Below, one piece after another: positions 14,763 to 60,622 of a stretch of DNA of 64,000 nt. The position numbers and the translations under genes were made by a program. Source of the stretch: Halorutilales archaeon Cl-col2-1 (lineage in GTDB: Archaea > Halobacteriota > Halobacteria > Halobacteriales > Afararchaeaceae); NCBI GenBank assembly GCA_041891055.1, contig CP169074.1, forward strand, positions 1,248,001 through 1,312,000. The letters run 5' to 3'. Below the pieces are notes generated by a model that was given only the letters and a program-made list of their open reading frames with translations, did not search any database and was not told the origin of the DNA. Within the stretch, counting starts at the first letter, position 1; each line of letters begins with the position of its first letter.

Positions 14763-14850
14763 AGAGCTTTGCTCTCGTTGGCTCAGAAATCAAAGATTTC
14801 TGAACGTATGCAAATCGAAGATTTGCTTGCACACTAATCAGAGATTAGCG
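14763..14850. repeat. Array of four triloop mini-hairpins (REP-like)
   Basis: AGAGC-TTT-GCTCT, TCAGAAATC-AAA-GATTTCTGA, GCAAATC-GAA-GATTTGC, CTAATC-AGA-GATTAG. Near-identical to 29796-29858. Confidence 0.9.
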
Positions 14851-29770: not shown

Positions 29771-29909
29771 TAATCAAAGATTAGCGAACGTTACGAGAGC
29801 TTTGCTCTCGCTGGCTCGGAAATCGAAGATTTGCTTGCACGCTAATCAGAGATTAGCGAACGTCCCGAGATCTACGATTCTGTTCTATGCAAATTTCAGA
29901 GAAATTTGC
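29771..29909. repeat. Array of five triloop mini-hairpins (same family as 14763-14850)
   Basis: TAATC-AAA-GATTA, CGAGAGC-TTT-GCTCTCG, AAATC-GAA-GATTT, GCTAATC-AGA-GATTAGC, GCAAATTTC-AGA-GAAATTTGC. Confidence 0.9.
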
Positions 29910-29947
29910 TCCGTCAGGGATTTGAACCCTGGTCATTGCCTCGAGAG
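29907..29947 (-). other. 3' half of tRNA-Glu(CTC): att site at the island boundary
   Basis: Minus strand CTCTCGA-GGCAATGACCAGGGTTCAAATCCCTGACGGAGCA gives anticodon loop, T-arm and acceptor 3' strand. The 5' half is absent and GC content drops to the right. Confidence 0.88.
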
Positions 29948-30180
29948 TCCGCCGAGTCTCGCGTAACTCTAACCTACTTTTCGGACATGACTTCTCTGAA
30001 TCCATGTCTTCTACTGGTGTCTATCAACCTATGACATCCCTATATAACCACCCTAACTACATAAAAACCCGGAACGTTGCCCCAGAAGGCAACTTGGATT
30101 GGATTTAACGTGTATACCGAATAGCGGGTGAAGAAAAATGACCCAAAAATTATTATTCGATTCTATCTCTGATTTGTGTA

Positions 30181-33100
30181 ATGGTAATTGAAGGTGCTAT
30201 CGCAAGTCTTCTAGTCGAAGTCGGTACTAACGCTGCCTCAAAGGCTTACGACTGGTACGACGACAGAGAACGGAGCAGCCGTATATCAGAAAACCTCAAC
30301 GACCTTGAAACTGAGTTCAACGACAGACTAGGTAAACGTATACAAGAGAGAGCAAACGACGACGACATAGACAGCACGAGCCTACTTCAGGTCGGATGGA
30401 AATGGAAAAATGTCGCCGACAGGGTGGACGTCTACGAACTCAGTTTTGAGGACGAGAGAGAAGCAGTAGACGAAATTACAGAGAGGATAGTTGAAACGGT
30501 AAATGCCGATACAGATACGTTCGGTGGAACAGAGCTCGACGAGAGTGATGAACAGGAGTTGCACGACATTCTTTCCGACGAATTCGCTGAAGCTACCGAA
30601 CAGTTCCGTGAAACAGTCGAAGGAAACCAAAAGCTACAGGACAAACTCCAGAACGACCTGAATGTCCAGATACTTGAGGAACTCAGAGAGATGCAGGAAT
30701 CGTTCGCAAGACTCAACGCGACACCGTACGACGTATACGACTTCCCCGAGGAACGTGACAAGATCCTCGAAAAGCTGGACAAGACATTCATCAAAGAGGA
30801 CGAAGCCCCTGAGTTCATCGAGAGAAACGACGGAACAGTACCCGACGACCACAAACCTGCTAAGCACTTCGTCGTCGGCCCGTCGGGTTCCGGTAAGAGC
30901 CGTATAGTCTTCGAGCGCTTAAAGCGTCTGTCGGACGACAGCCTGGCTCACATCATGGTACCTGACAAGGGCATGCTCTCACCATCAGATGCCTCGGGGC
31001 TGGCACGTGAGTCGTTCGACGGCGACTTACTGTTAGTCTGGGGGGACGTACACAGAGTAGCTCTGGATCAGGAAAATGCTTTCGTGAAAGACGTCCTGAC
31101 GAAGCTTGACGACGCACTCACAGAGCAGGGGCACAGTCTGCACACTCTCTTAGAGGCTCGCTCTGATAAGCTCGACAGCCTGACGGGGAACCTACCCGAT
31201 GACTTTAACAACGAGTTCTCGAAGAGCATCTGGACCGAGTATGAACCCATCTGGACAGAGGAACTCGATGAGGCAGTTCTGTACAGGATGGTAGGGGCAA
31301 TGGCGGAGAAGTACGGTGTCGAGATGGACGAAGAGGCACGCGATGCACTTGTCGAAAAGACCAACGACTCGAAGTCCGCACCGGAATATATAGACGCGGC
31401 ACTATCGACCGTACACGACGAGGATGGCGAACTGACTGTCGAAGACGTAGAAGAACTTTCGGAGACAGTCGAAGAAATGTGGCAGGAAAACTACGACTAC
31501 TTACGGGACGAATCCCCCAAGGAGTGGAATATTCTCCTCTCTATGAAGGCTCTCTACGACCTGAACGTGCTCCCGTACTCGCGCCTCGTTCGTTGCCTAT
31601 ACCTCGAGGTGTTTAACGGAGACAGGGGAGTGTTCAAGCCCGCGGTGAAATCCCTAAGCGACGGTCGACGGTGGGTAAACGTCGTGAGAGAAGGTAACTC
31701 CGCCGATGAAGTTCTAGAAGATGAGGTACGATACGAGATCCATGACACACAGCTTGACGCAGTGAGTTACAGCGCGAAGGACGACGCTGATGAGGTTTCG
31801 GAACTACTGCTCGATGAAACCGCCGACGCGGTTCCGCAGGAGATACAGGCTCGTGTACACTTCTTCGTGGGCAAGTCTCTTCACGAATGGGAGGTAGCTA
31901 AAAAGGCAGCAGTTCATTATGAGAGAAGCATAGCTATAGAGCCTAATACCATAGCCTACAACAACTATGGTATTCTTCTCCATAAGAAGTTAGACAGACC
32001 TGAGGACGCGGAAAAGAAGTATAAGAAAGCAATAAAACATGACCCCGAATACGCCATAGCCTACAACAACTATGGTCTTCTTCTCTATGAGAAGTTAGAC
32101 AGACCTGAGGACGCGGAAAAGAAGTATAAGAAAGCAATAAAACATGACCCCGAACACGCCATAGCCTACTACAACTATGGTAATCTTCTCGCTCGGGAGT
32201 TAGACAGACCTGAGGACGCGGAAAAGAAGTATAAGAAAGCAATAAAACACGACCCCGAATACGCCATAGCCTACACCAACTATGGTAGTCTTCTCGATGA
32301 GAAGTTAGACAGACCTGAGGACGCGGAAAAGAAGTATAAGAAAGCAATAAAACATGACCCCGAATACGCCGATGCCTACAACAACTATGGTAATCTTCTC
32401 TATGAGAAGTTAGACAGACCTGAGGACGCGGAAAAGAAGTATAAGAAAGCAATAAAACATGACCCCGAATACGCCATAGCCTACAACAACTATGGTAATC
32501 TTCTCTATGAGAAGTTAGACAGACCTGAGGACGCGGAAAAGAAGTATAAGAAAGCAATAAAACACGACCCCGAACACGCCAATGCCTACAACAACTATGG
32601 TAGTCTTCTCCATAAGAAGTTAGACAGACCTGAGGACGCGGAAAAGAAGTATAAGAAAGCAATAAAACATGACCCCGAATACGCCATAGCCTACAACAAC
32701 TATGGTAATCTTCTCTATGAGAAGTTAGACAGACCTGAGGACGCGGAAAAGAAGTATAAGAAAGCAATAAAACATGACCCCGAACACGCCGAACCCTACA
32801 ACAACTATGGTAATCTTCTCGATGAGAAGTTAGACAGACCTGAGGACGCGGAAAAGAAGTTTAAGAAAGCAATAAAACACGACCCCGAACACGCCAATGC
32901 CTACAACAACTATGGTATTCTTCTCGATGAGAAGTTAGACAGACCTGAGGACGCGGAAAAGAAGTTTAAGAAAGCAATAAAACACGACCCCGAATACGCC
33001 ATAGCCTACAACAACTATGGTCTTCTTCTCCATAAGAAGTTAGACAGACCTGAGGACGCGGAAAAGAAGTATAAGAAAGCAATAAAACATGACCCCGAAT

Positions 33101-34215
33101 ACGCCGATGCCTACAACAACTATGGTAATCTTCTCTATGAGAAGTTAGACAGACCTGAGGACGCGGAAAAGAAGTATAAGAAAGCAATAAAACACGACCC
33201 CGAAAACGCCGATGCCTACAACAACTATGGTAGTCTTCTCGATGAGAAGTTAGACAGACCTGAGGACGCGGAAAAGAAGTATAAGAAAGCAATAAAACAC
33301 GACCCCGAACACGCCAATGCCTACTACAACTATGGTAATCTTCTCTATGAGAAGTTAGACAGACCTGAGGACGCGGAAAAGAAGTATAAGAAAGCAATAA
33401 AACATGACCCCGAATACGCCGATGCCTACAACAACTATGGTAATCTTCTCTATGAGAAGTTAGACAGACCTGAGGACGCGGAAAAGAAGTTTAAGAAAGC
33501 AATAAAACACGACCCCGAATACGCCAATGCCTACAACAACTATGGTAGTCTTCTCCGTAAGAAGTTAGACAGACCTGAGGACGCGGAAAAGAAGTTTAAG
33601 AAAGCGATTAATCTATTCAGACAGAAGGGCAAAACTCAGCACCTTCTGGTCAGTCTGCGTGGCTTAGTCAGCCTGTCAATGGAGTTAGGACAATGGGAAA
33701 CAGTAACTGAAAACTGTGAACTTGCTCTCGAAGTACTCGAGGAAGCACCTCAACTCGACCCTGATGGGAGCGAACGCCTGTGGTTCAAGAGCATGAGAGT
33801 ACTGTCGAAAGAAGATACTATCGAGATTTATAGACACGGGCTTGAGAATGTCGAAGCGTCGCAAGGGAATATGGCTTTCCGCCTCTTTGAGCACGCTTGG
33901 GAGAGACGCGACGAACACGTCGATGGTTCACAGTCGTACAGCGCGGCGGTATCGGCGGGCGTCGCACTCGCGGCGCACTTAGATATGGGTGTAAAATCGT
34001 CGCGTACCGTTGACGGAATAATCGCCGAGATAGACGCCGACGACCTGTCAGGATCTCAGAAGGCTGTCTACGACGAAGTCCATCCAGATCGCGAGACGGA
34101 TGTGACGCCTAAGGGTATATTCGAATCTGCCGAACAGTACGAGAGTCTCGGTCTAGATGGAGCGGCTTTTGAGGCTCGGGTCTTCGGAAAGATACTCGGG
34201 GCTTTGAAATCGTGA
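30181..34215 (+). CDS. STAND/NLR-like P-loop protein with 16 highly conserved TPR units
   Basis: Helical N-terminal domain; Walker A VVGPSGSGKS; Walker B-like LLLVWGD; TPR array; C-terminal helical domain; 1344 aa. Confidence 0.8.
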   Translation: MVIEGAIASLLVEVGTNAASKAYDWYDDRERSSRISENLNDLETEFNDRLGKRIQERANDDDIDSTSLLQVGWKWKNVADRVDVYELSFEDEREAVDEITERIVETVNADTDTFGGTELDESDEQELHDILSDEFAEATEQFRETVEGNQKLQDKLQNDLNVQILEELREMQESFARLNATPYDVYDFPEERDKILEKLDKTFIKEDEAPEFIERNDGTVPDDHKPAKHFVVGPSGSGKSRIVFERLKRLSDDSLAHIMVPDKGMLSPSDASGLARESFDGDLLLVWGDVHRVALDQENAFVKDVLTKLDDALTEQGHSLHTLLEARSDKLDSLTGNLPDDFNNEFSKSIWTEYEPIWTEELDEAVLYRMVGAMAEKYGVEMDEEARDALVEKTNDSKSAPEYIDAALSTVHDEDGELTVEDVEELSETVEEMWQENYDYLRDESPKEWNILLSMKALYDLNVLPYSRLVRCLYLEVFNGDRGVFKPAVKSLSDGRRWVNVVREGNSADEVLEDEVRYEIHDTQLDAVSYSAKDDADEVSELLLDETADAVPQEIQARVHFFVGKSLHEWEVAKKAAVHYERSIAIEPNTIAYNNYGILLHKKLDRPEDAEKKYKKAIKHDPEYAIAYNNYGLLLYEKLDRPEDAEKKYKKAIKHDPEHAIAYYNYGNLLARELDRPEDAEKKYKKAIKHDPEYAIAYTNYGSLLDEKLDRPEDAEKKYKKAIKHDPEYADAYNNYGNLLYEKLDRPEDAEKKYKKAIKHDPEYAIAYNNYGNLLYEKLDRPEDAEKKYKKAIKHDPEHANAYNNYGSLLHKKLDRPEDAEKKYKKAIKHDPEYAIAYNNYGNLLYEKLDRPEDAEKKYKKAIKHDPEHAEPYNNYGNLLDEKLDRPEDAEKKFKKAIKHDPEHANAYNNYGILLDEKLDRPEDAEKKFKKAIKHDPEYAIAYNNYGLLLHKKLDRPEDAEKKYKKAIKHDPEYADAYNNYGNLLYEKLDRPEDAEKKYKKAIKHDPENADAYNNYGSLLDEKLDRPEDAEKKYKKAIKHDPEHANAYYNYGNLLYEKLDRPEDAEKKYKKAIKHDPEYADAYNNYGNLLYEKLDRPEDAEKKFKKAIKHDPEYANAYNNYGSLLRKKLDRPEDAEKKFKKAINLFRQKGKTQHLLVSLRGLVSLSMELGQWETVTENCELALEVLEEAPQLDPDGSERLWFKSMRVLSKEDTIEIYRHGLENVEASQGNMAFRLFEHAWERRDEHVDGSQSYSAAVSAGVALAAHLDMGVKSSRTVDGIIAEIDADDLSGSQKAVYDEVHPDRETDVTPKGIFESAEQYESLGLDGAAFEARVFGKILGALKS
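31951..33606 (+). repeat. Coding tandem repeat, 105-bp unit (35 aa), 15 full units plus one partial
   Basis: Unit starts at 31951, 32056 ... 33526, with an exact 105-bp period. Confidence 0.97.
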
Positions 34216-34283
34216 TCTTTCTTCGGCTCGGCTTTGTTTCCGACACGTACAACCGATCACTTTCTGGCTTGTTCTGGATAGTT

Positions 34284-35306
34284 GGCTCCATTGAATCACT
34301 AGACTGCGTCGGTGCGGGTCGGTAAATCAAAGGGGTTGAAGCGGGTAAGTAGTGGCTTGCATGAACCTTACAACCCGCTTCACTGAGGAGATGGTGTCGC
34401 TGGCCAAAAGTTATTGCGACGATCCCGACGAAGCTGCCTCCCCAGAAGGCGGCGGCAGCTTCGCGGAATACGCGATGATTCCCCTCCACAGGCTGCGAAT
34501 TTTCCTCGATGAGACCTACGAGATGATTATCGACCGGCTAGAGGTAATGCCGCCAATTCTGGAGATCGTCGGGCTCAAGACCGACGATCTTCCGCATCCA
34601 TCGACGTTGAATAAGTGCTTGATAGGATCGTAACGCAGGTCTGGCGCGTGCTGCTGCGCCACTCGGCGCAGCTGCACGCCCCATCGCCTCACGTCGCCGT
34701 TGACGCAACGTACTACGAGCGGTCACCGGCGAGCAAGCACTACTGCGACCGCACGAACTACCGCGTTCAGACGGTTGAAGCGACGAAACTCGTCGATACA
34801 GAGACGCAAGCGATCTTAGACGTGCATTGCACGACCACCCGAGAAGGAAGCGACGCAGAGGTCTGTGCGCAACTCGCCCGCCGGTACGCGGGCGAGTTGC
34901 AGACCCTTGCCGCAGACAAGGGCTATGATAGCCAACCGTTGCGTGACACCCTCCGAGAGATGGGCATACGTCCGCTCGTGAAACATCGCGTCTTCGCTCC
35001 GTACGACCACGCGCACAACGCACGAATCGAGGATGATCTCTACAATCAGCGCTCAATGACGGAGACAGTGAACTCGTCGGTCAAGCGCTCGTACGGCTCT
35101 GCCGTCCGAGCGCGTGAATGGTACCGTGAGTTCCGTGAGATCGTCCTGATGTGTCTCGTCTACAACATTGAAGGTGCTATTTCCTCTCCTACCTGCCAAC
35201 TTTGAGTGATTGAGTCGAATTCTCCTCGAAACTCCCCAATCAAAGCTGGGAGAGCTATCACAAGGTAGTAAGCAATTCCGCTTCACTCTGCGGATTCAAT
35301 AGGGCC
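34284..35306 (+). mobile_element. IS5-family (haloarchaeal ISH1/ISH9-like) element with frameshifted transposase
   Basis: Ends GGCTCCATTGAATC / GATTCAATAGGGCC. Transposase split between ORFs 34361-34633 and 34615-35205 (DATYY, ADKGYD, QRSMTETV); C-terminus aberrant. Confidence 0.88.
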
Positions 35307-36442: not shown

Positions 36443-36946
36443 ATGGGGCACCGTATACCAAATAGTAATCGAGTTGAAAGTGACGATATAAAGCCTGGTG
36501 CGGATCTTAGCGGCTTAGATCTCAGTTATTCAAAATTACGTGACGCAGAATTGAGGGGAGCAGACTTAAGAGAAGCTAACCTCAAATGTGCAGACTTGAG
36601 AGAAGCTAATCTAAAAGATGCTGATATGCGTGAGGCAGATATGAAAGAAATAGATCTTAGGGAAGCAAGCTTATATAAGGCTGATCTCCGAGAAGCAGAT
36701 CTATATAAAGCTGACCTCCGAGAAGCAGATCTATACAAAGCTGATCTTAGCGAAGCAGATCCTTATGAAGCCGATATTAGGGAAGCGGATTTAACTGGCG
36801 TTGACTTAACTGATGCTACTCTTTGGGAAGCAAATCTCAGTGAAAGTGATCTCCACAAAGCCCACTTGAGAGATGCGAACTTGAGTGGGGTCAAACTCAC
36901 AGGTGCAAACTTTGATGAATCAGAGATACCTGATGAGGTACTCTAA
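36443..36946 (+). CDS. Pentapeptide repeat protein
   Basis: Continuous A(D/N)LxE repeats, with 30-bp DNA-level duplications near 36680-36770. Confidence 0.88.
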   Translation: MGHRIPNSNRVESDDIKPGADLSGLDLSYSKLRDAELRGADLREANLKCADLREANLKDADMREADMKEIDLREASLYKADLREADLYKADLREADLYKADLSEADPYEADIREADLTGVDLTDATLWEANLSESDLHKAHLRDANLSGVKLTGANFDESEIPDEVL

Positions 36947-37945: not shown

Positions 37946-40861
37946 ATGAGTTATAAAAAAACTGACCCAACAGTAGTAATAGGTCTTGGGGGGGCCGGTT
38001 CCGGCATGGTTGCTGATGTAAGAGATCTTATCAGAAATGAAGTTATAAAAGGAGACAAAGAAATCGATAATAGGTTTCAGTATATAATTATTGATAGCGA
38101 TGATGAAAATCTAGACAAGATAGACACTAAAGCTGACGACGTGTCACGTATAAATATAGATAAAGGTACTATTGAAAGTGATATAGCAAGGCAGTCAATA
38201 GAAGAAGAAGAATACCATTATCTTCCGGAGGACAGTGATATAGAAGCTAGCCATTTAACAGGAAAGACTGGAACAGGGCAGCGTAGACCTGTTGGTAGAT
38301 ATTGTCTCCATTATAATCAAATACATGGTCAGGATAGTATACGCGAGAAGTTGTCTCAACGAATAGAAGGCTCCATAGAGAGCCTAATGGAGAACGTAGG
38401 AGATGAAAGTGTCAGCGATAACAATGCTCGTATCTGGATTCTGAATTCACTTTCTGGCGGTACAGGAAGTGGTATGTTTATCGATATAGCTGGAATGGTA
38501 AATGAGATAGTTGAAGGTGGTTTTGAGCCTGCTCCAAACACTATTACTTCCGGTGATTTTTCAATCATGGGAGTTGGTTCCCTGAATAAATGGGGGACAG
38601 GAGATATAAAGCAAGATTATATTGAAAATGGTTATACCGCTCTTGAGGACATAAAAAAGACAGTGGCAGGGAGCGACGGGGATGTTAAGCTTAGAATACC
38701 CGTTAATCAAGAAGATATCAAAGTACACGACTACCTCTTCGACGAGTATTTCTTACAGCCCATAAACTTTGACAAGGATTATAATAGCACAAAAGCTCCT
38801 GAATATAGAAGACAGCGTAATCGGGTTATAGGATCTTTAATACTCTCCTATGCCATCAGCTCTTCAACAGAAGATATAGCTGCTGATTTCAATAGTGATA
38901 GAGATTACAATATAAACTGGCTAACCGGATATGAAGTAAAAGCTCCAATGTCGGGTATCTATATGTACTCTTCTATGGAAAGTGCTATTGAGAGCGGGAA
39001 AACTCAAGTAGAGAAGGTAGATAAATCGATATCTGCCTATGAATCAGATATCAGTGATATATCTAATGCGATGGATGTCTCAGTACACGGCCCTCAAGGA
39101 AACGAAGACCAGGATATTGAGAAGAAAGATAATGACTGGAGAGCAAGAATAGAGGACGTTTTAGCAAACGCCGATGGGGATTCTAAAGTAGCTGCTGATT
39201 CTTCCGAGATCTCCATGGATACCAGTGACTGGAGTCCTCATTTAAGAAAGAAATTAGACCAGGTAATAGAGTATGCGAGAAAAGAAATATCTCATCTAGG
39301 TGGCGACTCAGACAAGGAAGACATCAATGAAGCAAAAAAACGTGTGGTAAAGGAAACGAGAATCTCTGGGGCAGATAACCAAAACACAGATGATCTTTAC
39401 TACGAAGGGGGGAAAGAAGAGGACGCTATAGCTGAGTATCTCTTTTTACAATTAGCTGCTAGACATATAGCGGAGAATCTGACTGCACACGAGATCTATG
39501 AATACTTACCTCCAGAAGCAGAGTGGGTTGATGAGTTACATAATACAGTTGCTGGAGAGAAACTAGGTAACAAGCCTAGCTATCAGATACTTGGACCTAT
39601 GCGTCAAGCCGAAGAGATAGGGGAAGAATTCTGGGAGTATTATAAAGAGAATAACCCTCGTGGTATTGGAATACTTACCTCATACATAGGGATACCGTTC
39701 ACTAACCTCGGTACGGGAACTTGGAAAAGGAGGAAAATCTGCAACCGCCTTAAAGCATGGCTACAGACTATGTATAAATCGGAAGACGGGGAGATATCGC
39801 CAACAGATGAGAAATACTATTCAGGTTCGCTGCGTGACTACCATGAACTCTATACTGCATATAAAGGAATAGTCAGTGATATGGAAGAATCCTACGAAAA
39901 GGTTGGAAGTATAAAGAAAGAATACAATAATATAATAGATATTTTAGAAAGAGTGAAGAATAGAATAGAGACTGACCTTGACAGATACGAATCAAGAAAG
40001 GAGAAAGTAGAGGAAAGCATCACCTCTAATGAAGTGGAACCATTTGCTAATAACAGGCATGCTGCTTCTGTAGACTTACCTGTGAATATAGAGAATATAG
40101 ATCAAAATGTGAAAAAAACGTCTAGAAAATACTTTGAAGAGTATGAGGGCGTGAAGAAAGCAGTAATTAGGAAGTATAATCTCTCTGAGGACAGCATAGA
40201 AGACTTAGGTATAACGAAAGAGTATGATCTGGACTTGGAAGAAGGGGAGATTAACCCAGACAGGTATGATCTTGGTGGATCCGTGAGTATTGATTGGGAG
40301 TTTGATACAGCTAATACGAAGAGAAGCATATACAGACTGTATAGTGAGTTTGATCTCTTTGACGAGATTGATATATCTCAATCATTCAACAGGGCTATGA
40401 ATGGGGTTAGTAACTTTGACATGTCAGATATAAATGATGCTCTCAATCCTGATCAAACGACAGAGAAAATGATGTTACAATGGGAGGAAGATAACAGGAA
40501 CCTTGCAGAAGATATTACTGCAGGCAATCAACCACTTGAAGATACAATAAATAAATTAGACTATGGTGAGATTCTTATGAGAGATCCGTATCGTGTCTGG
40601 ATGACAGTTGCATATTCAGGTCTTGACGAGCTAGAATACATGAGTGAATACATGCGTATTAGAGCATTATATACAAATATGGATGAAAATGATCTTGATA
40701 TAGAGTTAGATCTAGAAGATGATCTCTCTGACCTTGGATTAGATAAAAAAGGAGTATCAGAAGCGTTCGCGTATCCTGAACTACATGCTGAAGACAACGA
40801 TCTTTTAGAAAGTATGTTGGATATTCACTCAACTAATTGGATAGAGGAAAATGGAGTATGA
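37946..40861 (+). CDS. Tubulin-like (Tubulin_2-type) GTPase domain protein
   Basis: VVIGLGGAG, IIDSD, GTGQRRPVGR, NSLSGGTGSGMFID signature; long helical/coiled-coil tail; 971 aa. Confidence 0.88.
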   Translation: MSYKKTDPTVVIGLGGAGSGMVADVRDLIRNEVIKGDKEIDNRFQYIIIDSDDENLDKIDTKADDVSRINIDKGTIESDIARQSIEEEEYHYLPEDSDIEASHLTGKTGTGQRRPVGRYCLHYNQIHGQDSIREKLSQRIEGSIESLMENVGDESVSDNNARIWILNSLSGGTGSGMFIDIAGMVNEIVEGGFEPAPNTITSGDFSIMGVGSLNKWGTGDIKQDYIENGYTALEDIKKTVAGSDGDVKLRIPVNQEDIKVHDYLFDEYFLQPINFDKDYNSTKAPEYRRQRNRVIGSLILSYAISSSTEDIAADFNSDRDYNINWLTGYEVKAPMSGIYMYSSMESAIESGKTQVEKVDKSISAYESDISDISNAMDVSVHGPQGNEDQDIEKKDNDWRARIEDVLANADGDSKVAADSSEISMDTSDWSPHLRKKLDQVIEYARKEISHLGGDSDKEDINEAKKRVVKETRISGADNQNTDDLYYEGGKEEDAIAEYLFLQLAARHIAENLTAHEIYEYLPPEAEWVDELHNTVAGEKLGNKPSYQILGPMRQAEEIGEEFWEYYKENNPRGIGILTSYIGIPFTNLGTGTWKRRKICNRLKAWLQTMYKSEDGEISPTDEKYYSGSLRDYHELYTAYKGIVSDMEESYEKVGSIKKEYNNIIDILERVKNRIETDLDRYESRKEKVEESITSNEVEPFANNRHAASVDLPVNIENIDQNVKKTSRKYFEEYEGVKKAVIRKYNLSEDSIEDLGITKEYDLDLEEGEINPDRYDLGGSVSIDWEFDTANTKRSIYRLYSEFDLFDEIDISQSFNRAMNGVSNFDMSDINDALNPDQTTEKMMLQWEEDNRNLAEDITAGNQPLEDTINKLDYGEILMRDPYRVWMTVAYSGLDELEYMSEYMRIRALYTNMDENDLDIELDLEDDLSDLGLDKKGVSEAFAYPELHAEDNDLLESMLDIHSTNWIEENGV

Positions 40862-42486
40862 ATATGCCTGCTAAGAAAAAACCAAACTCACACACTATAG
40901 CGATAGGAGTAGGAGAATCCGGATGTCAAGTAGCATCACATCTGAGAAGTCTAAGTCGTAAAGATGGCTCTGAAGGGCATTTTCGCACTCTAGGTATATA
41001 TTCTGAAAGAGAAGAAATAGAAGAGATCAGTAAAGAAAAGTTAGACGACAGTGTCCGTCTAACGAAGCCAGATATAGAGGGAGAGGAGAGTTCCACTCTT
41101 TTAGATTCGAATCTCTCTGAAAGGATTGGGGAAGACAAAGCCGATGAAAGGATATCTGGAAGATTTTATATTGACTCTCAGGAGAACTTCCTCGACGTAT
41201 ATAGCTTGATAAACTCCGCCATAGAGGAATCAGTCTCAAAGTACAAGTATGATCTAGAGCAGGAAGTAGAAAGATACGATATATGGATTCTGAGCTCTTT
41301 AGATGAAGCATTTGGAAGCGGGGCGTTTCCTATAGTAGGTGCTATAGCTGACCACATATTCGATAATATAATGCAGGACGTGGAGAGAAATGATGCCAAT
41401 ATCTTTGGTATTGGCACATTCCCATGGAAGAGGGTTGACATAGAGAAATATATTTTCGAGAAGAATGTGGTTCCAGAGCAGGTGAACTCATATACAGCAC
41501 TTAAAGATATCGAGATACTAACTGACAAAGATAAACAACATCAGATAGATGTTCTTTCTTCCGAGGGTCATTCAGGAGGTGTGCCTGACGAACTCAGAGG
41601 AGGAGGTTCCTTCGATAATTACTTCCTCCAGCCAGCAGATAGAGGGAAAATCTGGAACGAAAACGAGAGAGAATTTACGAAAGACCTACAGATATCTGCT
41701 GCTGTTCTTCCTCTTTATCTCTCGAAATTAGATGGAAATGACAGCGATCATAGCTTGGAGGAATTGGAAGTAAACAACGGAGGGTATCAATCGTTTAGAA
41801 GCGTAGAAATAAAGATACCATACGAAAAGATTAACAAGTATATTAATCTAGATGAAAGGTCAGATGAGAAAGAGAGAGCGAAAATACGTAAGGAGTTCCA
41901 TTCTTTCAAGAGAAGAAAAAGACGTATACCGCTCCCAATAAAAAATCCAGAAGAAAAATTGAAGTCTTTTGAAAAAGATGAGAAAGACAATGGTAAAATT
42001 ACATTAAAAAGTCTTATTGATGAGGGAGTTATTTCCAGGGAGCATATTCAGAAAGCCCGAGATATAGCCCTTGGTGATATACTTTCTTCTGAGCCCTTAC
42101 TTGATATAGATACCGAATCCGGATATGAACAAAACTCATATATCGGATACCTCAGAAGTGAGAATAACTCTGATATTCTTAAAGGTAATGACAGCAGCTA
42201 TGCAGTTCTAATGAATGAATACGATGGCAATGTAGACGCAGAAATAGGAGAAGAACGTGGTATATGGCTCGTAGGGACGTACCCCTGTCCTGATTTAGAT
42301 CATGTAAGTGAATTCAGGAGAATAGATGATAGATACTCTGAAAAAGAAAAAGACCTAACGGAGCTGTTTGGTGATGTCCACGAAGGTGAAATAACTGATG
42401 AGTATGTTACTGAAAGATTTGCATATCCTGAATTCTACTATGAGAACGAACTATTTGAGAAAAGAATGAAAGATAAATTCTACTGA
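40858..42486 (+). CDS. Degenerate tubulin-like paralogue
   Basis: IAIGVGESG, R.SGRF, ILSSLDEAFGSGAF, FDNYFLQP. Shares the C-terminal FAYPE motif with the upstream gene and overlaps it by ATGA. Confidence 0.8.
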   Translation: MNMPAKKKPNSHTIAIGVGESGCQVASHLRSLSRKDGSEGHFRTLGIYSEREEIEEISKEKLDDSVRLTKPDIEGEESSTLLDSNLSERIGEDKADERISGRFYIDSQENFLDVYSLINSAIEESVSKYKYDLEQEVERYDIWILSSLDEAFGSGAFPIVGAIADHIFDNIMQDVERNDANIFGIGTFPWKRVDIEKYIFEKNVVPEQVNSYTALKDIEILTDKDKQHQIDVLSSEGHSGGVPDELRGGGSFDNYFLQPADRGKIWNENEREFTKDLQISAAVLPLYLSKLDGNDSDHSLEELEVNNGGYQSFRSVEIKIPYEKINKYINLDERSDEKERAKIRKEFHSFKRRKRRIPLPIKNPEEKLKSFEKDEKDNGKITLKSLIDEGVISREHIQKARDIALGDILSSEPLLDIDTESGYEQNSYIGYLRSENNSDILKGNDSSYAVLMNEYDGNVDAEIGEERGIWLVGTYPCPDLDHVSEFRRIDDRYSEKEKDLTELFGDVHEGEITDEYVTERFAYPEFYYENELFEKRMKDKFY

Positions 42487-42643: not shown

Positions 42644-44659
42644 TCAACGGTGTATCGATCGCGTCAGAGTGAATACAAATACTGCAATCAAGAATGCTCC
42701 GATAAAGCCCTCTATTGAACTTAGTAACTGGGGCAAAAGCTCCGTATCAACAGGACTTGACCCGAGTATGAAAGTTATAAAAGATTGGGTACTCAGTAAC
42801 AAGTATCCAAAGGTTCCTTCTGAGGTAGGAGGAGCGTCTACCATCCAGTACAGGACTGCAAATAGGAATATAGTTGTAACGGAGAATATTACTGGTCTCT
42901 TCGGTCTCTCGCCATAACCTGCTATGATCCCAAGCGTCGCATTACTCAACCATTGATAACTCGCTTTCCAAACAGGTTTTTTCTCTCGGGATCCCCGTTT
43001 ACGTTGCGGAGATAGATGAGAAACTATATCCAGTAAAGAACAACCTACACCAATCCAAGGCGCTAATATATACTCTACAACTGAGTCGGGACTTTCGATC
43101 AAAACTTCTGACAAACGCTGTTTAGCCGAGATTGTGTGTTCTCTTCGTCGACATTTCATCTCATGTACGAAAAACTCAGATGCGGCTTTATTATGTCCTG
43201 CTTCAGTAGCACCGCTTTTTGCCCGAAGATAAGTTTCTTCAAGGGATTCGTATTTCTGAAGTTCATCACATTCTTGAGTTTCATCTTCAGTAGGCCAATC
43301 TTCCACGAGTCTGTCAAGTTTCCAGTCCGGCTTAAGATATATATCGTGAGCAGTAAAATCAAAACCTTCAAAATCAGTTCTTGAAATTCGAATATATGAA
43401 AACAAGTCTTGAGGAGCTCCGCTTACACCTTTTATAGAGACTTTCCCAATCGAAGCTTCTGTCATATCATAATAAGTTGGGTTTTCATCTATCTCAATAA
43501 CCCCAGAAGAAAGAGTTGCTCCTTTTAGAGAGACAACGTCATTTGGTACCTTTAGCTTTCTTAGTTCGACAAAATCTGAGAAATCGGCACCAGTAAAAGT
43601 AACTCCATCCTCAATGTGAGTCTGTATTATTCTGACCATGCCGTTAAAGGTCGCATATTCACAATCGAGACTTCCTCCGAACGTTGTAGCAAGCATCTCA
43701 ACTTTTGACCCGAAATTACTGTTCCACAAAACTACGTCTTCTTTGAATGTAGTGTAATTAAAGATGGCGGCAGTTCTGTACTCTCCTTGGAATTGAGCAT
43801 GACCTTCTATAGTTGCTTTGCTGAAGTCCGCTTTGTCATCAAAGGTAGCCCATATCTCTGCGTCTTCTTCGAACTCTGCATAATTAAACATACCAACATC
43901 CTCAAACTTTGCTCCATTAAAAGAAACATTAGACTCAAACCTCGCGTTTTTGAAGTCTACTGTGTTTCCAAAGTGAGCCTGATTAAAGTTAATTGTTGCA
44001 TCCAAACTTACGTACCTATTCGACGCAATGCCTGTCTCAGAATCATCCTCTTCTACTCTAGAACAGAAAACCGCGCCTTCAGCATTTACTGGTGGCTCAA
44101 AATAAGTACCCTTGCATTCTAACTCGTCGTAAATCCTTACCAACCGGAGATCCAATTCTTCGTTATCATGAGATTCAATACGCTCCTCGGACAAGCATAA
44201 GCTTCGAAAGCTAGCTCCAATGAACATCTTTTGTTGATTCCCACTAGCATCAACTGCTTTCAAGAACTTATTATCGATATCTTCTGGTTTAACACCCACT
44301 TCCTGATATCTTTCAGGTTTAAGGTGGAAATAACAGTAATCTTCTCCATTTACTTTTTCATGAGGACACTGATCTGGAATCCATTCATTTTCGGTTTCCC
44401 ATACAGTAGCTGCTTTCGCAACTGATACATCTACGTTCGGATTCTTTGATAAAGAGACACCATCTACTGATTCGCCTATGGTCTTAACCGCAAGCTCTGA
44501 TGGATCCTCGTCAACTATTGAGCTTATCTCTTCAATACGTTCTTGTGTATTTGTGCTCTCAACCTTACGAAGGTAAGTCTCTAGATCCCAAGCACGGCCA
44601 ATATAGGATTGAACACGTTGATACCAATCTTCAGAGTCAAAGAAGGAACACTCAGTCAT
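42644..44659 (-). CDS. Pentapeptide-repeat protein with C-terminal two-TM channel-like domain
   Basis: CPH..CYFH motif; A.F...F repeats; GYGERP followed by TM-pore-TM; filter degenerate (SFITFILG). Confidence 0.8.
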   Translation of the reverse strand: MTECSFFDSEDWYQRVQSYIGRAWDLETYLRKVESTNTQERIEEISSIVDEDPSELAVKTIGESVDGVSLSKNPNVDVSVAKAATVWETENEWIPDQCPHEKVNGEDYCYFHLKPERYQEVGVKPEDIDNKFLKAVDASGNQQKMFIGASFRSLCLSEERIESHDNEELDLRLVRIYDELECKGTYFEPPVNAEGAVFCSRVEEDDSETGIASNRYVSLDATINFNQAHFGNTVDFKNARFESNVSFNGAKFEDVGMFNYAEFEEDAEIWATFDDKADFSKATIEGHAQFQGEYRTAAIFNYTTFKEDVVLWNSNFGSKVEMLATTFGGSLDCEYATFNGMVRIIQTHIEDGVTFTGADFSDFVELRKLKVPNDVVSLKGATLSSGVIEIDENPTYYDMTEASIGKVSIKGVSGAPQDLFSYIRISRTDFEGFDFTAHDIYLKPDWKLDRLVEDWPTEDETQECDELQKYESLEETYLRAKSGATEAGHNKAASEFFVHEMKCRRREHTISAKQRLSEVLIESPDSVVEYILAPWIGVGCSLLDIVSHLSPQRKRGSREKKPVWKASYQWLSNATLGIIAGYGERPKRPVIFSVTTIFLFAVLYWMVDAPPTSEGTFGYLLLSTQSFITFILGSSPVDTELLPQLLSSIEGFIGAFLIAVFVFTLTRSIHR

Positions 44660-49200: not shown

Positions 49201-51249
49201 TTATCGTGCTGCCCTTCGACCGAGGATGAACACGAGCAGGGCAAGCATCACTGCTCCAAAGCCTGTCTCAAGCGTCGTCAACAGTCGTCCGAGGCCAACC
49301 GGCTGGAAGTCACCGAATCCGAGCGCCGTGTACGTCAGTGTCGAGTAGTAGACCGAGTTGAGAATCTCGATAGGGTTGGACACAATCTGTGCGTAGGTAA
49401 TCGGGTCACTGTCTGCCGGTTTCATCCATCCTCCGAGCGGATACAGAAGTGCGAACGAGAAGATGATACCGAGGCTCCACGCGATGACGCGCCACGGACT
49501 CTCGCCGTAGAGCAGTGTCGCTCGTGCCACCTTCGCTCGACCCCACCGAGCGCCCGCTATGAACTGTTCTTCAAGTGAGGCGTCATTTGCTGTGGCATCA
49601 TCCCAGTAGTCCTGCTTCTGGAGGTCTTGCCGTCGGACAAACGAGCGAGCCTGTAACCGAGGGCGGGCGTGCTTTCCTCCGAGTTCCTCAAACGCTCGGT
49701 AGACGCTTTTCGCTTTATCTATGTCTTCATATTGGTTATTGTCTTCATAGTCAGGGTCATAGACGCAAGTCGAAGGTGAACGGATAGCCGAGAAAGTATG
49801 TGGGGATGTATTGCCGTCATCGGAAGGATGGCCAAGGAGTTTTGTTTTGTCATCAATTCTGGCATCACCCAATAGGGCACCTGAAAGACGACAGCCACTC
49901 ATATCTGCGCCCAGAAGAACAGTCCTGTTTAATTCTGCATTTTCAAAGTTAGATCTGCCTAATTTTGTATTATCGAAAGAACAGCCCGAGCAGTCTGAAC
50001 TACTAAAATTAGCGCCCTCAAAGTTAGTATCTGAGAAGTCTGAGTTAGCCACATCTGACTCTGAGAAATTAGGAGAATTTTGGAAAGTTACAGCTATATC
50101 TTCTGTAGTAGAAAAGTCAGAATCTCTAATATCGGATTTAGAAAACATAGCATCAGACCTAAAAACTGTTTTAGATTTGTCAATATTGGCATCTCCGCCG
50201 AATTGACCTCCTTCACGCATCGTCACTCTTGAAAAATCAGCATCTCCGATAAATTCACATCCGCAAAATTTACCATAGCCTAAATATGACGAGCGGAATT
50301 CTGCCCGTCCATCAAACAACGACTCTGTAAAATCAGCTCTTCCTCTAAACCTTGTATTAGTAAAACAAACAGACCGATTGATAGAACCTCCGTCATTTTC
50401 ACAAAATTCAGATCCTCTGAATGAAGATGAGGAATTGAAATTCGCATTCCTAAAATTGGCCGATTCATTAAAATTTGACCTAAGGAAATTCACTTTATCA
50501 TCAAATTCTGCTTCCTTGAATTTTGCTTTGCAGTTGAATTCGGAAGACGGAAAGTTAGTTCTTAAGTTTACATTTACTTCTCTAAAATCTGCTTCATTTT
50601 GGAAGGTTGCTTTCCCAAAGGCTGCTCCTCTATCAAAAGAGGCCCGATAGAAGTTTGCTTCAGCAAAATATGATTCACGAAACGTGGCTCCTCTGAAAGA
50701 GGTGCGTTCAAATGATGCCCTTCGTTCAAACATTACCTCTCGAAAATATGCACCTTTATTGAAATTGGCACCATCAAAAACAACATCTTCATAAAACTCG
50801 CTGCCATCAAATGATGTTTCATATATAAAACTAGAATAGTTTAGAAACATCTCTATATTTATGCTACAATCCTCTATTCTAACATCGCCCTTGAATTCAG
50901 AACCGATAAAAATAAGCGGAAAATCCGCATTTCCCCCAATTTCTTCTCTTTTTATTATTAAATCATCGAATATACAACCGATAAATTGACCACCTATATA
51001 TTCATATTCGTCTTCCTGGATTACTTTAAATAATTCATCTGACTTATCCTTTTCACTGGGTATTTCATCAAGAGGTAGGTGAAATATACATCTATCTCTA
51101 TTATCCAGTGCTTCAAATGGGCACTCCCAAACGTCTCTGCCGATATTCAACTTATTGAGAATTTTTGGCCAATCTTCAGCGAAGCCACCCCACTCCTGCC
51201 AGTCAGATTGGTCTGCTACAAAAGAGCAGGTGTCTGCCGTGGAACTCAT
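49201..51249 (-). CDS. Pentapeptide-repeat protein fused to K+-channel pore domain
   Basis: CPF..CIFH motif; long pentapeptide tract; YGESPWR; YYSTLTYTALGFGD selectivity filter. Confidence 0.88.
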   Translation of the reverse strand: MSSTADTCSFVADQSDWQEWGGFAEDWPKILNKLNIGRDVWECPFEALDNRDRCIFHLPLDEIPSEKDKSDELFKVIQEDEYEYIGGQFIGCIFDDLIIKREEIGGNADFPLIFIGSEFKGDVRIEDCSINIEMFLNYSSFIYETSFDGSEFYEDVVFDGANFNKGAYFREVMFERRASFERTSFRGATFRESYFAEANFYRASFDRGAAFGKATFQNEADFREVNVNLRTNFPSSEFNCKAKFKEAEFDDKVNFLRSNFNESANFRNANFNSSSSFRGSEFCENDGGSINRSVCFTNTRFRGRADFTESLFDGRAEFRSSYLGYGKFCGCEFIGDADFSRVTMREGGQFGGDANIDKSKTVFRSDAMFSKSDIRDSDFSTTEDIAVTFQNSPNFSESDVANSDFSDTNFEGANFSSSDCSGCSFDNTKLGRSNFENAELNRTVLLGADMSGCRLSGALLGDARIDDKTKLLGHPSDDGNTSPHTFSAIRSPSTCVYDPDYEDNNQYEDIDKAKSVYRAFEELGGKHARPRLQARSFVRRQDLQKQDYWDDATANDASLEEQFIAGARWGRAKVARATLLYGESPWRVIAWSLGIIFSFALLYPLGGWMKPADSDPITYAQIVSNPIEILNSVYYSTLTYTALGFGDFQPVGLGRLLTTLETGFGAVMLALLVFILGRRAAR

Positions 51250-51286: not shown

Positions 51287-52403
51287 GTCTTTGGTGAATC
51301 GCAATACGTAACTTGATTTACTATTTTACAGCATGTTTGATGTTATAGACAGATCAGATCAGAACGAGTTCACGAAATTCTCTGTACCAGGCACGCGCAC
51401 GCACGGCTTCACGAAGCACAGCTTCGTTAGCTGAAAATCTTCGATTTTAAGCAGTGCCGAGCGTGCGCTTGATGTTTGAGAAGACGGTTTCAGACATGGA
51501 TCTTTGACCATAGAAAGACCCATCGATCCTAGTGTCGAAAATCTGAGATTTGCGTACATCCAAAAATCAGAGATTTTTGAATACGTTATGCGCCTGATCG
51601 ATGGGCCGGAACTCACGGTGTTTGATGAGTGGTCTTACGTCTTCTTCTCGTAATTTTTCACGTAGTTTCATCCAGTCATAGCCTTTGTCGGCAGCGAGGG
51701 TATGCAGGTCGCCTGCGTTCCGCAGTGCGACCTGCAAGCCGAGCTGAGTATCATGGCGTTTCTCAGCCGTGCAGTGAAGGTCAAGGACTGCTTGAGTTTC
51801 TGTGTCGACGAGGGCTGTAGCTTTGAGTGTCTGGACACGGTAATTCGTCCTACGGCAGTAGTGTTTGCTAGCGTTTTCTCGGTCGAAGTAAGTAGAGTCC
51901 ATAGCAGTGTGACCGGTGTTGTCGTGTAGTTCCGAGGAGAGACGGAGAAGTACTCGCCATACACCCATCTCTATCCTATCGAATGCTTTGACTAGGGTTG
52001 AATGGTGAGGGAGATCGTCCTCTTCGAGGCCGATCTCCTCAAGAATTCTTGGCATCTCGCTCAACAGATCGAGTGCTTCTCGGTAGGATTTCTCTAAGTA
52101 AATCCGTAGACAGTGGAGAGAAACGATGGCGTAATCCGCGAAGCCGCCACCCTGCTCTGGGGCGGCGGCTTCGCTCCGACCACCAACATCATGAACTCCG
52201 TTCATGAGCCTCAAAGCTCTGCTTTGAGACAGCGTTTTTAGCTAATGTCACGACTCTATCACTGAAGTTAATCGAAGATTCACATGCGTTAGGACACTTG
52301 CGTTCCAAAACGGGAGATTTTGGACATGTCACCGAAAACTTCCCGCTTCATCTCCTTTGCATTAGTGGCTTAACCCAACGCAGTCTAGTGATTCACCAAA
52401 GCT
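51287..52403 (-). mobile_element. IS5-family element whose transposase (52327 to 51321) is interrupted by four hairpin cassettes
   Basis: TIRs CTTTGGTGAATC / GATTCACCAAAG; MSKISR...DSTYFDRENAS...ADKGYD...YNIKHAVK. Inserts at 51411-51455, 51533-51583, 52186-52228 and 52268-52310. Confidence 0.92.
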
Positions 52404-54293: not shown

Positions 54294-54908
54294 ATGACTG
54301 AAGTCTGGCTGACTGAGAGTGAAATAGAAACTCTCGAACTTCAAGCCGACAAACTCAGAGATAGACTGATAATACAGCTCGGAGCCTACAGCGGTATGCG
54401 TATAGGTGAGGTTGTCTCTCTCCAGGTATCAGACTTAGGTCAAGAGACAGTCAACGGAGAACTAAGATATTTTGCTAAAGTCGAAGGGAAAAAGACTGAC
54501 CAAGATGCTGAAGGTGAGACTGAAAAAAAGATCCGTGAAGCATGGATTACACGTGATACCTGGAAAGACCTCCAGACCCATATAAACCAAGAGAATCTAA
54601 ACGGAGACGATTATGTCATGAACTCCCGGTATGGAGATGGTCTACACAAAGACAGTGCAAGAAAGATAGTCAAGAGGATAGCTGAGAAGGCTTACAATCA
54701 GACGGATAAAGAAAAGTTTCTCAATGTCAGTAGCCACGACCTGAGACGGTTCTTCGCCCACTACCTGGCTGAAGAACAGGGTATCAATATACGTGTGGTC
54801 ATGGATCTAGGGGGATGGGAGGATCTACAAACCTTCGTGAAGCATTATCTCGACAAGCCCAGCAAAAGAACAAAAGCTCGTGAATTAGAAGCCGCAGGAT
54901 GGAGATGA
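54294..54908 (+). CDS. Small tyrosine recombinase (catalytic domain only)
   Basis: GMR, GKK, SHDLRR, LGGW, HY give a complete R-K-H-R-W-Y set; 204 aa. Confidence 0.9.
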   Translation: MTEVWLTESEIETLELQADKLRDRLIIQLGAYSGMRIGEVVSLQVSDLGQETVNGELRYFAKVEGKKTDQDAEGETEKKIREAWITRDTWKDLQTHINQENLNGDDYVMNSRYGDGLHKDSARKIVKRIAEKAYNQTDKEKFLNVSSHDLRRFFAHYLAEEQGINIRVVMDLGGWEDLQTFVKHYLDKPSKRTKARELEAAGWR

Positions 54909-55262: not shown

Positions 55263-55940
55263 CTAAGATAGCGATAATTCTACGTGTTCCTCAAGTTCGG
55301 ACTCACGTAGATGTTCTAATTGATCATCAGAAAGATTATTCAGCGCAAAGCGTTCTTCATTTAGAAGTCCTTTTACAATCTCTTCAAGCTCTGTACCCTC
55401 GTACGGGCCGAAGAGCTTTTCCTTTGCTTGATCATATGATTGGCGTACATCTGAGCCGTATTCTTGTGTATATGATCCCAGTTCTCGTATATTTTCTTCT
55501 TTATTATTATATATATCTTCTTTCCAATCCCAATTATTAAATAGGTCAGCAAGATCATCGAGTATCTCTTCGTCAACCTGTTCGAGTCTTTGATTGAGCT
55601 TTTTCATGCCAGATACTTGATCTGCCATATCTGATCGGATGTCCTGAATCTTAACATTAATTCTGTGACGCTCTTTTTCAATTTCCGTTTCAAGTTCATC
55701 TATTTCCTCCTCCATCTTCTCGAAATTATTTCTCTCTATATGCTTATTCATTTCCTGAACAGCCTGTTTTTTATCTTCATCTATTTCTATTTCAATTTCA
55801 AATATAGTTGAAGCAAGAACTCCCTGTAGTATAGTTTCCTCCATTATATTTGCTACTTCATTCAAACGGTCATTTAGTTCACTATGTCTATACTGTTTAT
55901 ATACTTGGTCAAGTTCTTCCTCAAACCCTTCATTTGACAT
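55263..55940 (-). CDS. Helical/coiled-coil protein, DpdI-like position
   Basis: About 225 aa, acidic and helical; overlaps the end of the ATPase gene. Confidence 0.6.
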   Translation of the reverse strand: MSNEGFEEELDQVYKQYRHSELNDRLNEVANIMEETILQGVLASTIFEIEIEIDEDKKQAVQEMNKHIERNNFEKMEEEIDELETEIEKERHRINVKIQDIRSDMADQVSGMKKLNQRLEQVDEEILDDLADLFNNWDWKEDIYNNKEENIRELGSYTQEYGSDVRQSYDQAKEKLFGPYEGTELEEIVKGLLNEERFALNNLSDDQLEHLRESELEEHVELSLS

Positions 55941-60618: not shown

Positions 60619-60622
60619 TAGG

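Follow-up and report, generated by a model that had tools for sequence, protein, structure and literature searches.

Receptors of the nucleotide-binding oligomerisation domain (NOD)-like type (NLRs) with sensors made of nearly identical repeats are represented in Podospora by the NB-ARC-tetratricopeptide repeat (TPR) proteins and the NACHT-WD het-e/het-d proteins, whose repeats of high internal conservation (HIC) are given as more than 85% identical in the account of Dyrka et al. (Dyrka et al., 2014; PMC4986451). Near-identical repeats that vary at the binding positions are a hallmark of rapidly re-targetable fungal NLRs and have also been noted in multicellular bacteria; these sources document HIC-repeat NLRs for fungi and note them for bacteria (PMC4986451; 10.1101/2020.01.06.895854). 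Archaeal Bell domains and NLR architectures are reported in the latter work essentially only from Methanosarcinales (Dyrka et al., 2020; 10.1101/2020.01.06.895854), and the antiviral members (Avs) of the signal transduction ATPases that have numerous domains (STAND) in bacteria and archaea are divided into 589 clades in the survey of Lee et al. (Lee et al., 2026; PMC13581612). Here we describe a gene of the Halorutilales archaeon Cl-col2-1 that lies in a stretch of 64,000 nucleotides, referred to as the window (assembly GCA_041891055.1, contig CP169074.1, positions 1,248,001 to 1,312,000), and in which the same evolutionary regime is encountered on a mobile island of a unicellular haloarchaeon and in an uncharacterised STAND family. 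The reading frame 30181-34215 (+) is open over 1344 codons (4035 nt) and combines a helical N-terminal domain and a STAND-type NOD with an array of near-identical TPR units, among which a small number of alleles at concave positions recurs in varying combinations. On balance, it is probably a stand-alone NLR-like STAND receptor that is carried as cargo of a tRNA-Glu integrative island, and the diversity of its concertedly evolving TPR sensor appears to be confined to the predicted binding groove.

Tandem Repeats Finder located the array at 31949-33605 with a period of 105, 15.8 copies, 93% matches and 0% indels (score 2837). When a nine-residue motif, met again at intervals of 35 residues, is taken as the anchor, the array resolves into 16 in-register units of 35 codons (31948-33627), the last of which departs from the consensus beyond codon 29, and the Pfam family matched by the array is TPR_17 (E 1.4e-95). 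The near-identical 105-bp units reported in a preliminary description, which was made from the letters of the sequence, were thus found again, 16 of them and all in frame. Across units 1-15 only 17 of the 105 nucleotide columns are variable. The alleles are I7/D4/N4/E1 at codon 2, N13/Y2/T1 at codon 5, N8/S4/I2/L2 at codon 9, Y7/D4/H3/A1/R1 at codon 12, E11/K4/R1 at codon 13, Y12/F4 at codon 25 and Y9/H5/N1 at codon 35, where unit 16 has a K. All variants named in the preliminary description, including the Y/F toggle, are among them as stated, and its count of two singleton changes has to be corrected to three, namely T1 in unit 1, P3 in unit 9 and E14 in unit 3. Its further statement that the synonymous sites are homogenised as well holds for all of them but one, codon 31, the sole synonymous variable site, which toggles between CAT (8) and CAC (7).

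At the DNA level the 15 full units are all distinct, and all four gametes occur in 18 of the 28 pairs of variable sites, which fits recombinational reshuffling, or recurrent mutation, and bears out the earlier observation that a few alleles recur in different combinations. The internal identity of 0.89 at an offset of 35, determined over a 140-aa window, places the array within the definition of HIC repeats (more than 85% identity over at least 100 aa). Its G+C content is 42.8%, as opposed to 55.4% for the contig. A blastn search of two units against the whole genome returned 17 matches, all within the array, with no copy elsewhere, so that neither a template of the kind used by diversity-generating retroelements (DGRs) nor a paralog for exchange is available. 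Diversification of the DGR type was ruled out on these grounds, and since the gene was also single-copy when its own genome was searched, exchange is possible only inside the array.

According to the analysis of Magliery and Regan, positions 2, 5, 9, 12, 13, 33 and 34 of the TPR are the most variable and make up the concave ligand-binding face (Magliery and Regan, 2005; PMC1261162). This numbering can be carried over to the array by means of the Pfam alignments, in which residues 975-1009 correspond to positions 1-34 of the TPR_8 profile and residues 976-1009 to positions 2-34 of the TPR_2 profile; because the unit has one extra residue, position 35 here is the published position 34. The concave-face codons of the 35-residue unit were therefore fixed a priori as 2, 5, 9, 12, 13, 34 and 35. 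They hold 12 of the 17 variable columns of units 1-15 (binomial P = 9.2e-6), six of the ten amino-acid-variable codons (hypergeometric P = 8e-4) and every one of the six codons with at least three alleles (2, 5, 9, 12, 13 and 35; P = 4.3e-6). The assignment of the variable positions to the concave groove in the preliminary description agrees in this way with the published set.

The same pattern can be followed into the relatives of the protein. The family, defined by the N-terminal 589 residues, comprises 116 representatives at E <=1e-3 among 1.84 billion proteins; an indexed search gave ten relatives, one of which is a plasmid-encoded "tetratricopeptide repeat protein" of a Natrialbaceae archaeon, and this is the only label that family members bear in the database. 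Homogenised arrays were found in P0008 (35-aa units, identity 0.88), P0114 (34 aa, 0.89), P0032 (42 aa, 0.87), P0014 (0.75) and P0120 (51-aa units, 0.73). Four of these five inspected relatives (P0008, P0114, P0014 and P0032) vary mainly at the same TPR positions, that is, in columns 2, 5, 9, 12/13 and the last one, a count in which the 51-aa unit of the fifth, P0120, was left unmapped. P0008 is the best replicate of the array pattern at the protein level, and in the 42-residue unit of P0032 the insert varies too. Averaged over the 10 relatives with 35-residue units, the entropy is highest at positions 2 and 35 (1.9), followed by positions 9 (1.7) and 12 (1.6), while positions 5 and 13 (1.4) are tied with positions 1 and 30. 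Positions in helix B and the loop that have an entropy of 0.8-1.4 in these relatives are invariant in the window array. The arrays of the homologs in genomes of the class show 69-77% DNA identity, with the exception of a 1.9-copy repeat in locus L012 (90%), and among the 17 loci of a metagenome scan a homogenised array is present only in L025/L026 (126 bp, 90%). With 10 synonymous-variable and 13 nonsynonymous codons, L025 is the picture of a drifting array that undergoes ordinary synonymous drift.

The preliminary description had made its interpretation depend on a STAND fold of the P-loop region, and the AlphaFold2 (AF2) model indeed aligns with Apaf-1, MalT and NLRs. The model was built from the 57-member family alignment and has a mean predicted local distance difference test score (pLDDT) of 84.4 and a predicted template modelling score of 0.77; only residues 1-35 are below a pLDDT of 50. 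CED-4 and Apaf-1 come first in the Foldseek list, which also contains MalT, EfAvs5, SAMD9 and ZAR1. In VIA-align, the comparison with Apaf-1 (3shf) gave a Z of 16.8 and a root-mean-square deviation of 4.7 for 337 aligned residues over model residues 189-589, followed by MalT (8bob, Z 15.8), the Pyrococcus STAND-TPR protein (6mfv, Z 15.4) and the NB-ARC domain of NRC1 (Z 15.1). A Foldseek-independent search listed MalT (Z 15.9), 6mfv (15.4), NLRP9 (14.3), NRC2 (14.2) and NLRP3 (14.1). STAND proteins are aligned over approximately 290-340 residues that span 187-589 of the model, whereas clamp loaders and Clp/Hsp100 proteins, with a Z of 12-13.7, are aligned over ~206-428 only. As residues 430-589, which form the winged helix and the arm, align with STANDs and not with other AAA+ proteins, the model is marked as a STAND, and on the strength of this prediction residues 189-589 can be assigned with confidence to a module of nucleotide-binding domain, helical domain 1, winged-helix domain and helical domain 2 (NBD-HD1-WHD-HD2). 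A profile search of the PDB with the full-length family alignment returned TPR proteins only.

The motifs of this module are largely conserved in the 57 sequences. G238, K239 and R241 of Walker A are invariant, P401 is present in 56 of the sequences and R327 in 48, and the triplet IHD is kept at H521 in 51 and at D522 in 45 of them. R327 and IHD were placed by alignment and predicted secondary structure; by comparison with STAND motifs, we regard R327 as a putative sensor 1 and IHD (520-522) as a putative counterpart of the MHD motif of NB-ARC proteins. The Walker B sequence LLLVWGD, described as atypical at the outset, is so in the window protein only: position 288 is D in 40 sequences, E in 15, Q in one and G in one, the last being the window protein itself, and the following D289 is kept in 56 of the 57. 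For the codon of G288 (31042-31044) no difference is listed in the metagenome contigs that cover it, so the glycine is not a sequencing error. The glycine suggests that this copy may bind nucleotide and hydrolyse it poorly.

The N-terminal domain (residues 1-190) consists entirely of helices in the AF2 model, with a pLDDT of ~70-87 from residue 40 onwards, and 11 sequences all have F46, L50 and W75. A helix is modelled at residues 2-15, but with a pLDDT below 50. At the family level the N-termini show a hydrophobic helix rich in small residues after an acidic residue: 44 of the 57 relatives have D or E at positions 2-5, and 44 of 57 likewise contain, among their first 30 residues, a 15-residue window with a Kyte-Doolittle value of at least 1.2, as opposed to 2 of 57 within residues 41-175. 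An N-terminal helix of this type is described as common to the Bell, HeLo, MLKL and plant coiled-coil (CC) domains (Dyrka et al., 2020; 10.1101/2020.01.06.895854), and the helix of this family may be said to resemble the Bell/HeLo/CC-type feature, a resemblance and not a demonstrated relationship. The fold lists are dominated by the NOD, and the N-terminal domain was compared with known families at the sequence level. Its profile gave a best E of 0.089 against PDB sequences, which is noise, and NNH2 (PF22734), the best named neighbour in a feature search (0.84), falls in the range of chance and was kept as a lead only. In the relative P0075, an HNH_2 nuclease domain (21.1 bits, cut-off 21) precedes the same NOD, and this identifies the N-terminus as a slot whose output domain can be exchanged, like that of antiviral STANDs. 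At the other end of the protein, residues 1150-1344 have no Pfam match; their sequence is homologous in P0004, P0005, P0006 and P0008, their neighbours in the feature search are TPR clusters (0.91-0.93, again a lead only), and they probably form a helical TPR-like cap. The features are compiled in Table 1.

Table 1. Coordinates of the features of the gene and its immediate surroundings in the window.
Feature	Position	Strand	Remark
41-bp att core, copy of the 3' part of tRNA-Glu(CTC)	29907..29947		distal (left) end of the 57-kb island
Whole open reading frame, 1344 aa	30181..34215	+	N-terminal helical domain, STAND NOD, 16 TPR units, TPR-like cap
Hydrophobic helix at the N-terminus (residues 1-20), position 4 acidic	30181..30240	+	
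All-helical N-terminal domain, residues 1-190, putative effector/signalling module	30181..30750	+	
STAND nucleotide-binding oligomerisation module NBD-HD1-WHD-HD2 (predicted), residues ~191-589	30751..31947	+	
Walker A GPSGSGKS, residues 233-240	30877..30900	+	
Walker B LLLVWGD, residues 283-289, G288 in place of the first acidic residue	31027..31047	+	
R327 in LLEARS, sensor-1-like arginine	31159..31161	+	
IHD, residues 520-522, MHD-like, winged-helix domain	31738..31746	+	
Degenerate TPR-like lead-in, residues 555-589	31843-31947	+	within the STAND module
16 homogenised 105-bp (35-aa) TPR units, putative sensor	31948..33627	+	
C-terminal helical TPR-like cap (probable), residues 1150-1344	33628..34212	+	conserved in close relatives
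Insertion sequence (IS) element, DDE_Tnp_1 transposase at 34615-35205	34292..35205		77 bp downstream of the gene

The gene belongs to an island of 57.1 kb that extends from window position 29907 to G000:C1:1335095 and has 41-bp direct repeats at its ends. The att core in the window has the same 41 bases as G000:C1:1335055-1335095, a segment of an intact tRNA-Glu(CTC) gene (identified by ARAGORN) 57.1 kb downstream on the same contig, and a gene for a tyrosine integrase (Phage_integrase, 382 aa) is situated just inside this tRNA gene, outside the window. For the window alone, Rfam and ARAGORN were without result; the tRNA fragment of the att site was seen by eye and confirmed by the genome search. 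At ~30 kb the G+C content falls from ~58% to 40-50%, and the interior of the island is a mosaic of 37-54% as opposed to 55-60% in the flanking chromosome. The start of the gene lies 234 bp inside the att repeat, in agreement with its earlier designation as the first cargo beside the att site.

The rest of the island is of mixed content. The DDE_Tnp_1 IS element downstream of the gene has an inverted second copy at 51567-52395, with 54-nt arms (in the second copy at 52342-52395) that are 76% complementary, and the two copies bracket ~17 kb of the DNA with the lowest G+C content, an arrangement that resembles a composite transposon. A 971-aa protein with an N-terminal Tubulin_2 domain (E 3.5e-31) and an overlapping 549-aa open reading frame (ORF) without family are encoded at 37946-42486, in a part of the island with 39% G+C. 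Three pentapeptide-repeat proteins are encoded at 36443-36946, 42644-44659 and 49201-51249, the last of which (682 aa) has a C-terminal Ion_trans_2 channel domain. A 204-aa Phage_integrase ORF at 54294-54908, apart from the integrase next to the tRNA gene, may be the remnant of a nested element. On the minus strand, the genes of the run 55263-63805 encode an ORF of 228 aa, an nSTAND3-like NTPase of 978 aa that bears a TFIIB-type zinc ribbon, two ORFs without family and a helicase of 1060 aa that has an MZB (DUF1998-type) domain and matches the DruE, DrmA and BrxH models; the run is a candidate for a second defence module of the island. Two intergenic regions, one of them close to the att site (29771-29873) and the other at 14763-14850, have segments of 37-39 nt in common (92-97% identity) and contain short palindromes, for example AAATCGAAGATTT and TAATCAGAGATTA. 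They have the look of a small dispersed repeat element, of which a weaker third copy is present at 52269-52299.

Environmental copies of the locus were found in metagenomes. Left-flank contigs from two salt-lake runs of one study cover 29944-31963 and 29944-32003 with 16 and 20 differences, respectively, and right-flank contigs cover 33597-34421; in one run 12 nt are deleted in frame at 34142, and no other indel is listed. In these short-read contigs the array falls apart into fragments of 59-82 nt, whose depth is ~8-18 times that of the flanks (137.6 vs 17.1; sums of bins 288 vs 17.1 and 155 vs 8.4). The depths are rough values obtained by summing contig depths, and they agree roughly with what an array of 16 units should give. 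Of the eight differences listed within the array, codons 5, 12 and 13 account for five, codon 14 for one and codon 16 for two; the pieces were taken at a likeness threshold of 90%, and related genes may contribute to them. The environmental contigs (X1 and X2, ~99% identical) leave the window at 29944, the inner edge of the att core. As the sequence to the left of this position is absent from the present genome, the gene sits at a different junction in that population; an excised circular island was considered as the source of the departing contig and rejected, the letters of the loose end occurring nowhere in this genome. A further run, X3, contained only the tRNA-like core and pieces of the IS element.

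Among 400 further genomes of the class, 14 were found to contain a homolog. The genera with a match number 13 of 91, the window's own genus included, of which the other genome (G025) has none. Plasmids account for nine records from Halobacterium and one from Halorientalis; a search of a phage collection gave no homolog, which says nothing about the target either way. Nine homolog neighbourhoods revealed no conserved partner gene, and in six of the nine an integrase or transposase is close by. PADLOC defence models are found beside three of ten homolog loci, with a weak LmuB match at a fourth. The neighbours include a BrxH/DruE-like helicase at L037 and LmuB-like plus PDC-S11 genes at L043, and on the Halobacterium salinarum plasmid pHSAL2 (L045, 5316-13897) the homolog is located between a transposase and genes for DUF4238 and ApeA-like HEPN proteins, with ISH elements around. 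At L042 (7261-14140) the homolog is flanked by a MutS_V fragment of 184 aa on one side and a full-length mutS on the other, as though a duplicated end of mutS had received it next to or within its sequence. Since the family is present in genetically tractable Halobacterium strains, its trigger, its effector mechanism and the dynamics of its array are directly testable.

Several results weigh against an immune receptor. The statistics of selection are weak: pN/pS across the units is 1.50, the extra alleles (19 nonsynonymous and 1 synonymous) give a binomial P of 0.24, and the comparison with the less homogenised L025 gives a Fisher P = 0.06. The substitution of G288 for the D or E of 55 of the 57 family sequences may impair the NTPase switch. 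NB-ARC and NACHT of Pfam were not matched at E <=0.1 by the whole protein or at E <=10 by residues 194-589, and the window protein is unlisted for nSTAND_NTPase5 (PF25199, cut-off 34 bits) at E <=1. The NTPase region has matches to AAA_16 (E 0.0015-0.016) and, on the P-loop, to nSTAND1 (E 0.0041). Eight of 11 close relatives match nSTAND_NTPase5 weakly (best E 6.2e-6) and the distant relatives P0109 and P0118 pass its cut-off with 49.6 and 49.0 bits, and the window protein appears to be related to this family without a score of its own by which it could be filed there. The N-terminal domain gave nothing beyond noise in Pfam at E <=10, and none of the HeLo, SesA or RPW8-type families. An enzymatic effector was not recognised in Pfam searches of the protein and its ends, as the preliminary description had noted. 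The defence-system hidden Markov models of PADLOC-DB 2.0 assign the protein to no known defence family; the three matches, PrimPol (E 2.8e-26, on TPR residues 1044-1118), mad8 (E 0.012) and TPR (E 0.013), either lie in the repeats or are weak. The nearest defence-like genes in the window, those of the nSTAND3-like NTPase and the DruE/DrmA-like helicase at 55.9-63.8 kb, are 21-26 kb away.

Part of these results would also be expected of a non-immune STAND protein of the MalT/PH0952 type, a signalling or regulatory protein or a scaffold whose TPRs sense a cellular metabolite or protein and whose units are homogeneous owing to recent duplication. The absence of an effector enzyme in Pfam and of recognition by PADLOC agrees with such a protein, as does the position of MalT and 6mfv at the top of the Foldseek-independent search. 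It is nevertheless rather unlikely: a DNA-binding or output domain was not found with Pfam, the gene is accessory and patchy in the class, its locations are islands and plasmids where integrases, transposases and defence genes are neighbours, and in one relative the N-terminal slot is taken by an HNH nuclease. Variation confined to the groove (P ~9e-6) is also unlike neutral duplication, for which L025 with its 10 synonymous-variable codons shows what drift looks like. That the gene is decaying or inactive, with a switch disabled by the Walker B glycine and an array expanded by functionless slippage, is improbable. G288 itself and the IS element 77 bp downstream speak for decay, but the frame of 4035 nt runs uninterrupted across the 1.7 kb of repeats, in which there is no indel, the variation is position-specific, and the environmental contigs keep the frame and, where they cover the G288 codon, list no difference there, with 16 and 20 differences at other sites over ~2 kb.

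Haloarchaea mate by cell fusion, and an allorecognition (kin-discrimination) receptor could act at this step in the manner of the fungal het NLRs, the array determining specificity and a non-self partner protein triggering death of the fused cell. Its signature of internal conservation, hypervariable concave sites and shuffling does match that given for fungal HIC-repeat NLRs (PMC4986451). A polymorphic partner locus was not seen, however, nor a conserved neighbour at the nine loci, and a single-copy gene that is absent from most of the genomes searched fits a mobile defence gene better than a recognition locus shared by a whole species, which makes this reading decidedly doubtful. Lastly, the assembler could have made up or collapsed the length or order of the array, given that 1.7 kb of 105-bp units with 93% identity are beyond short reads and that the metagenome contigs break inside it. 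An artefact of this kind is highly improbable in view of 15 full units that are all distinct, in frame and without indels, a host contig of 1.94 Mb and a repeat depth in two metagenome runs that, as a rough measure, is in the range for ~16 units.

For the favoured NLR-like receptor, we infer an immune role, ligand sensing, oligomerisation, membrane attack and polymorphism in repeat number from family resemblance and genomic context. Unequal recombination or gene conversion within the array would homogenise the units, while selection would retain, and recombination reshuffle, a few alleles at groove positions, thereby changing the binding properties of the superhelical groove. A foreign ligand, most likely a protein of a virus or mobile element, would bind in the groove and release autoinhibition, upon which the NOD would exchange its nucleotide and oligomerise. 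The N-terminal helical domains clustered in this way might then damage the membrane with their hydrophobic first helices or recruit a host factor, and the infected cell would be stopped, which amounts to abortive infection. A bolder version, which we regard as a long shot, is a self/non-self system like that of the fungal het genes, in which intragenic shuffling of a few groove alleles over 16 TPR units would yield many specificities and a HeLo/CC-like N-terminal helix would kill mismatched fusion partners or infected cells by attacking the membrane. If true, NLR recognition diversified by recombination would be coupled to pore-forming death in unicellular archaea.

Receptors of this kind are already known; the family and its occurrence in haloarchaea are new as far as the literature was searched, and the searches, in which the supplementary tables of PMC13581612 were not covered, gave no description of such a haloarchaeal array. 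In structural terms, MalT (8bob) and the Pyrococcus STAND-TPR protein (6mfv) are the closest matches to the NOD and arm in the Foldseek-independent search (Z 15.9/15.4, model residues ~194-589), and both have a TPR sensor after the NOD, as in the window protein. The identity is only 9-12%, however, and the window protein has no DNA-binding output domain, a different N-terminal domain and a gene that is accessory and mobile. The Bell, HeLo, MLKL and plant CC domains are, as described, helical with a hydrophobic first helix and an early acidic residue like the N-terminal domain of this family (44 of 57 relatives); the Bell domain is given as ~120-140 residues, compared with ~190 here, and there is no sequence similarity in Pfam at E <=10.

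The Avs families, in the form in which they are presented by Lee et al. (PMC13581612), share with the window family the single-gene STAND organisation, a sensor that is TPR-like and an N-terminal slot for exchangeable effectors, which is occupied by HNH in P0075, and the likeness extends to the location of the window family on mobile elements near defence genes. The Avs sensor is described as a large irregular domain that recognises folds, whereas the sensor here is a regular homogenised array; moreover, the window protein matches no Avs model of PADLOC and contains no nuclease, protease or Sir2 effector. The fungal HIC NLRs, as portrayed by Dyrka et al. (PMC4986451), are a chromosomal family with many paralogs, in contrast to the single-copy archaeal gene on an integrative island, whose units have 35 residues and whose NOD has no Pfam match to NB-ARC or NACHT. 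Like the window gene, the fungal receptors combine an N-terminal module, a NOD and superstructure-forming repeats, with polymorphism on the concave side and alleles that are shuffled among the units.

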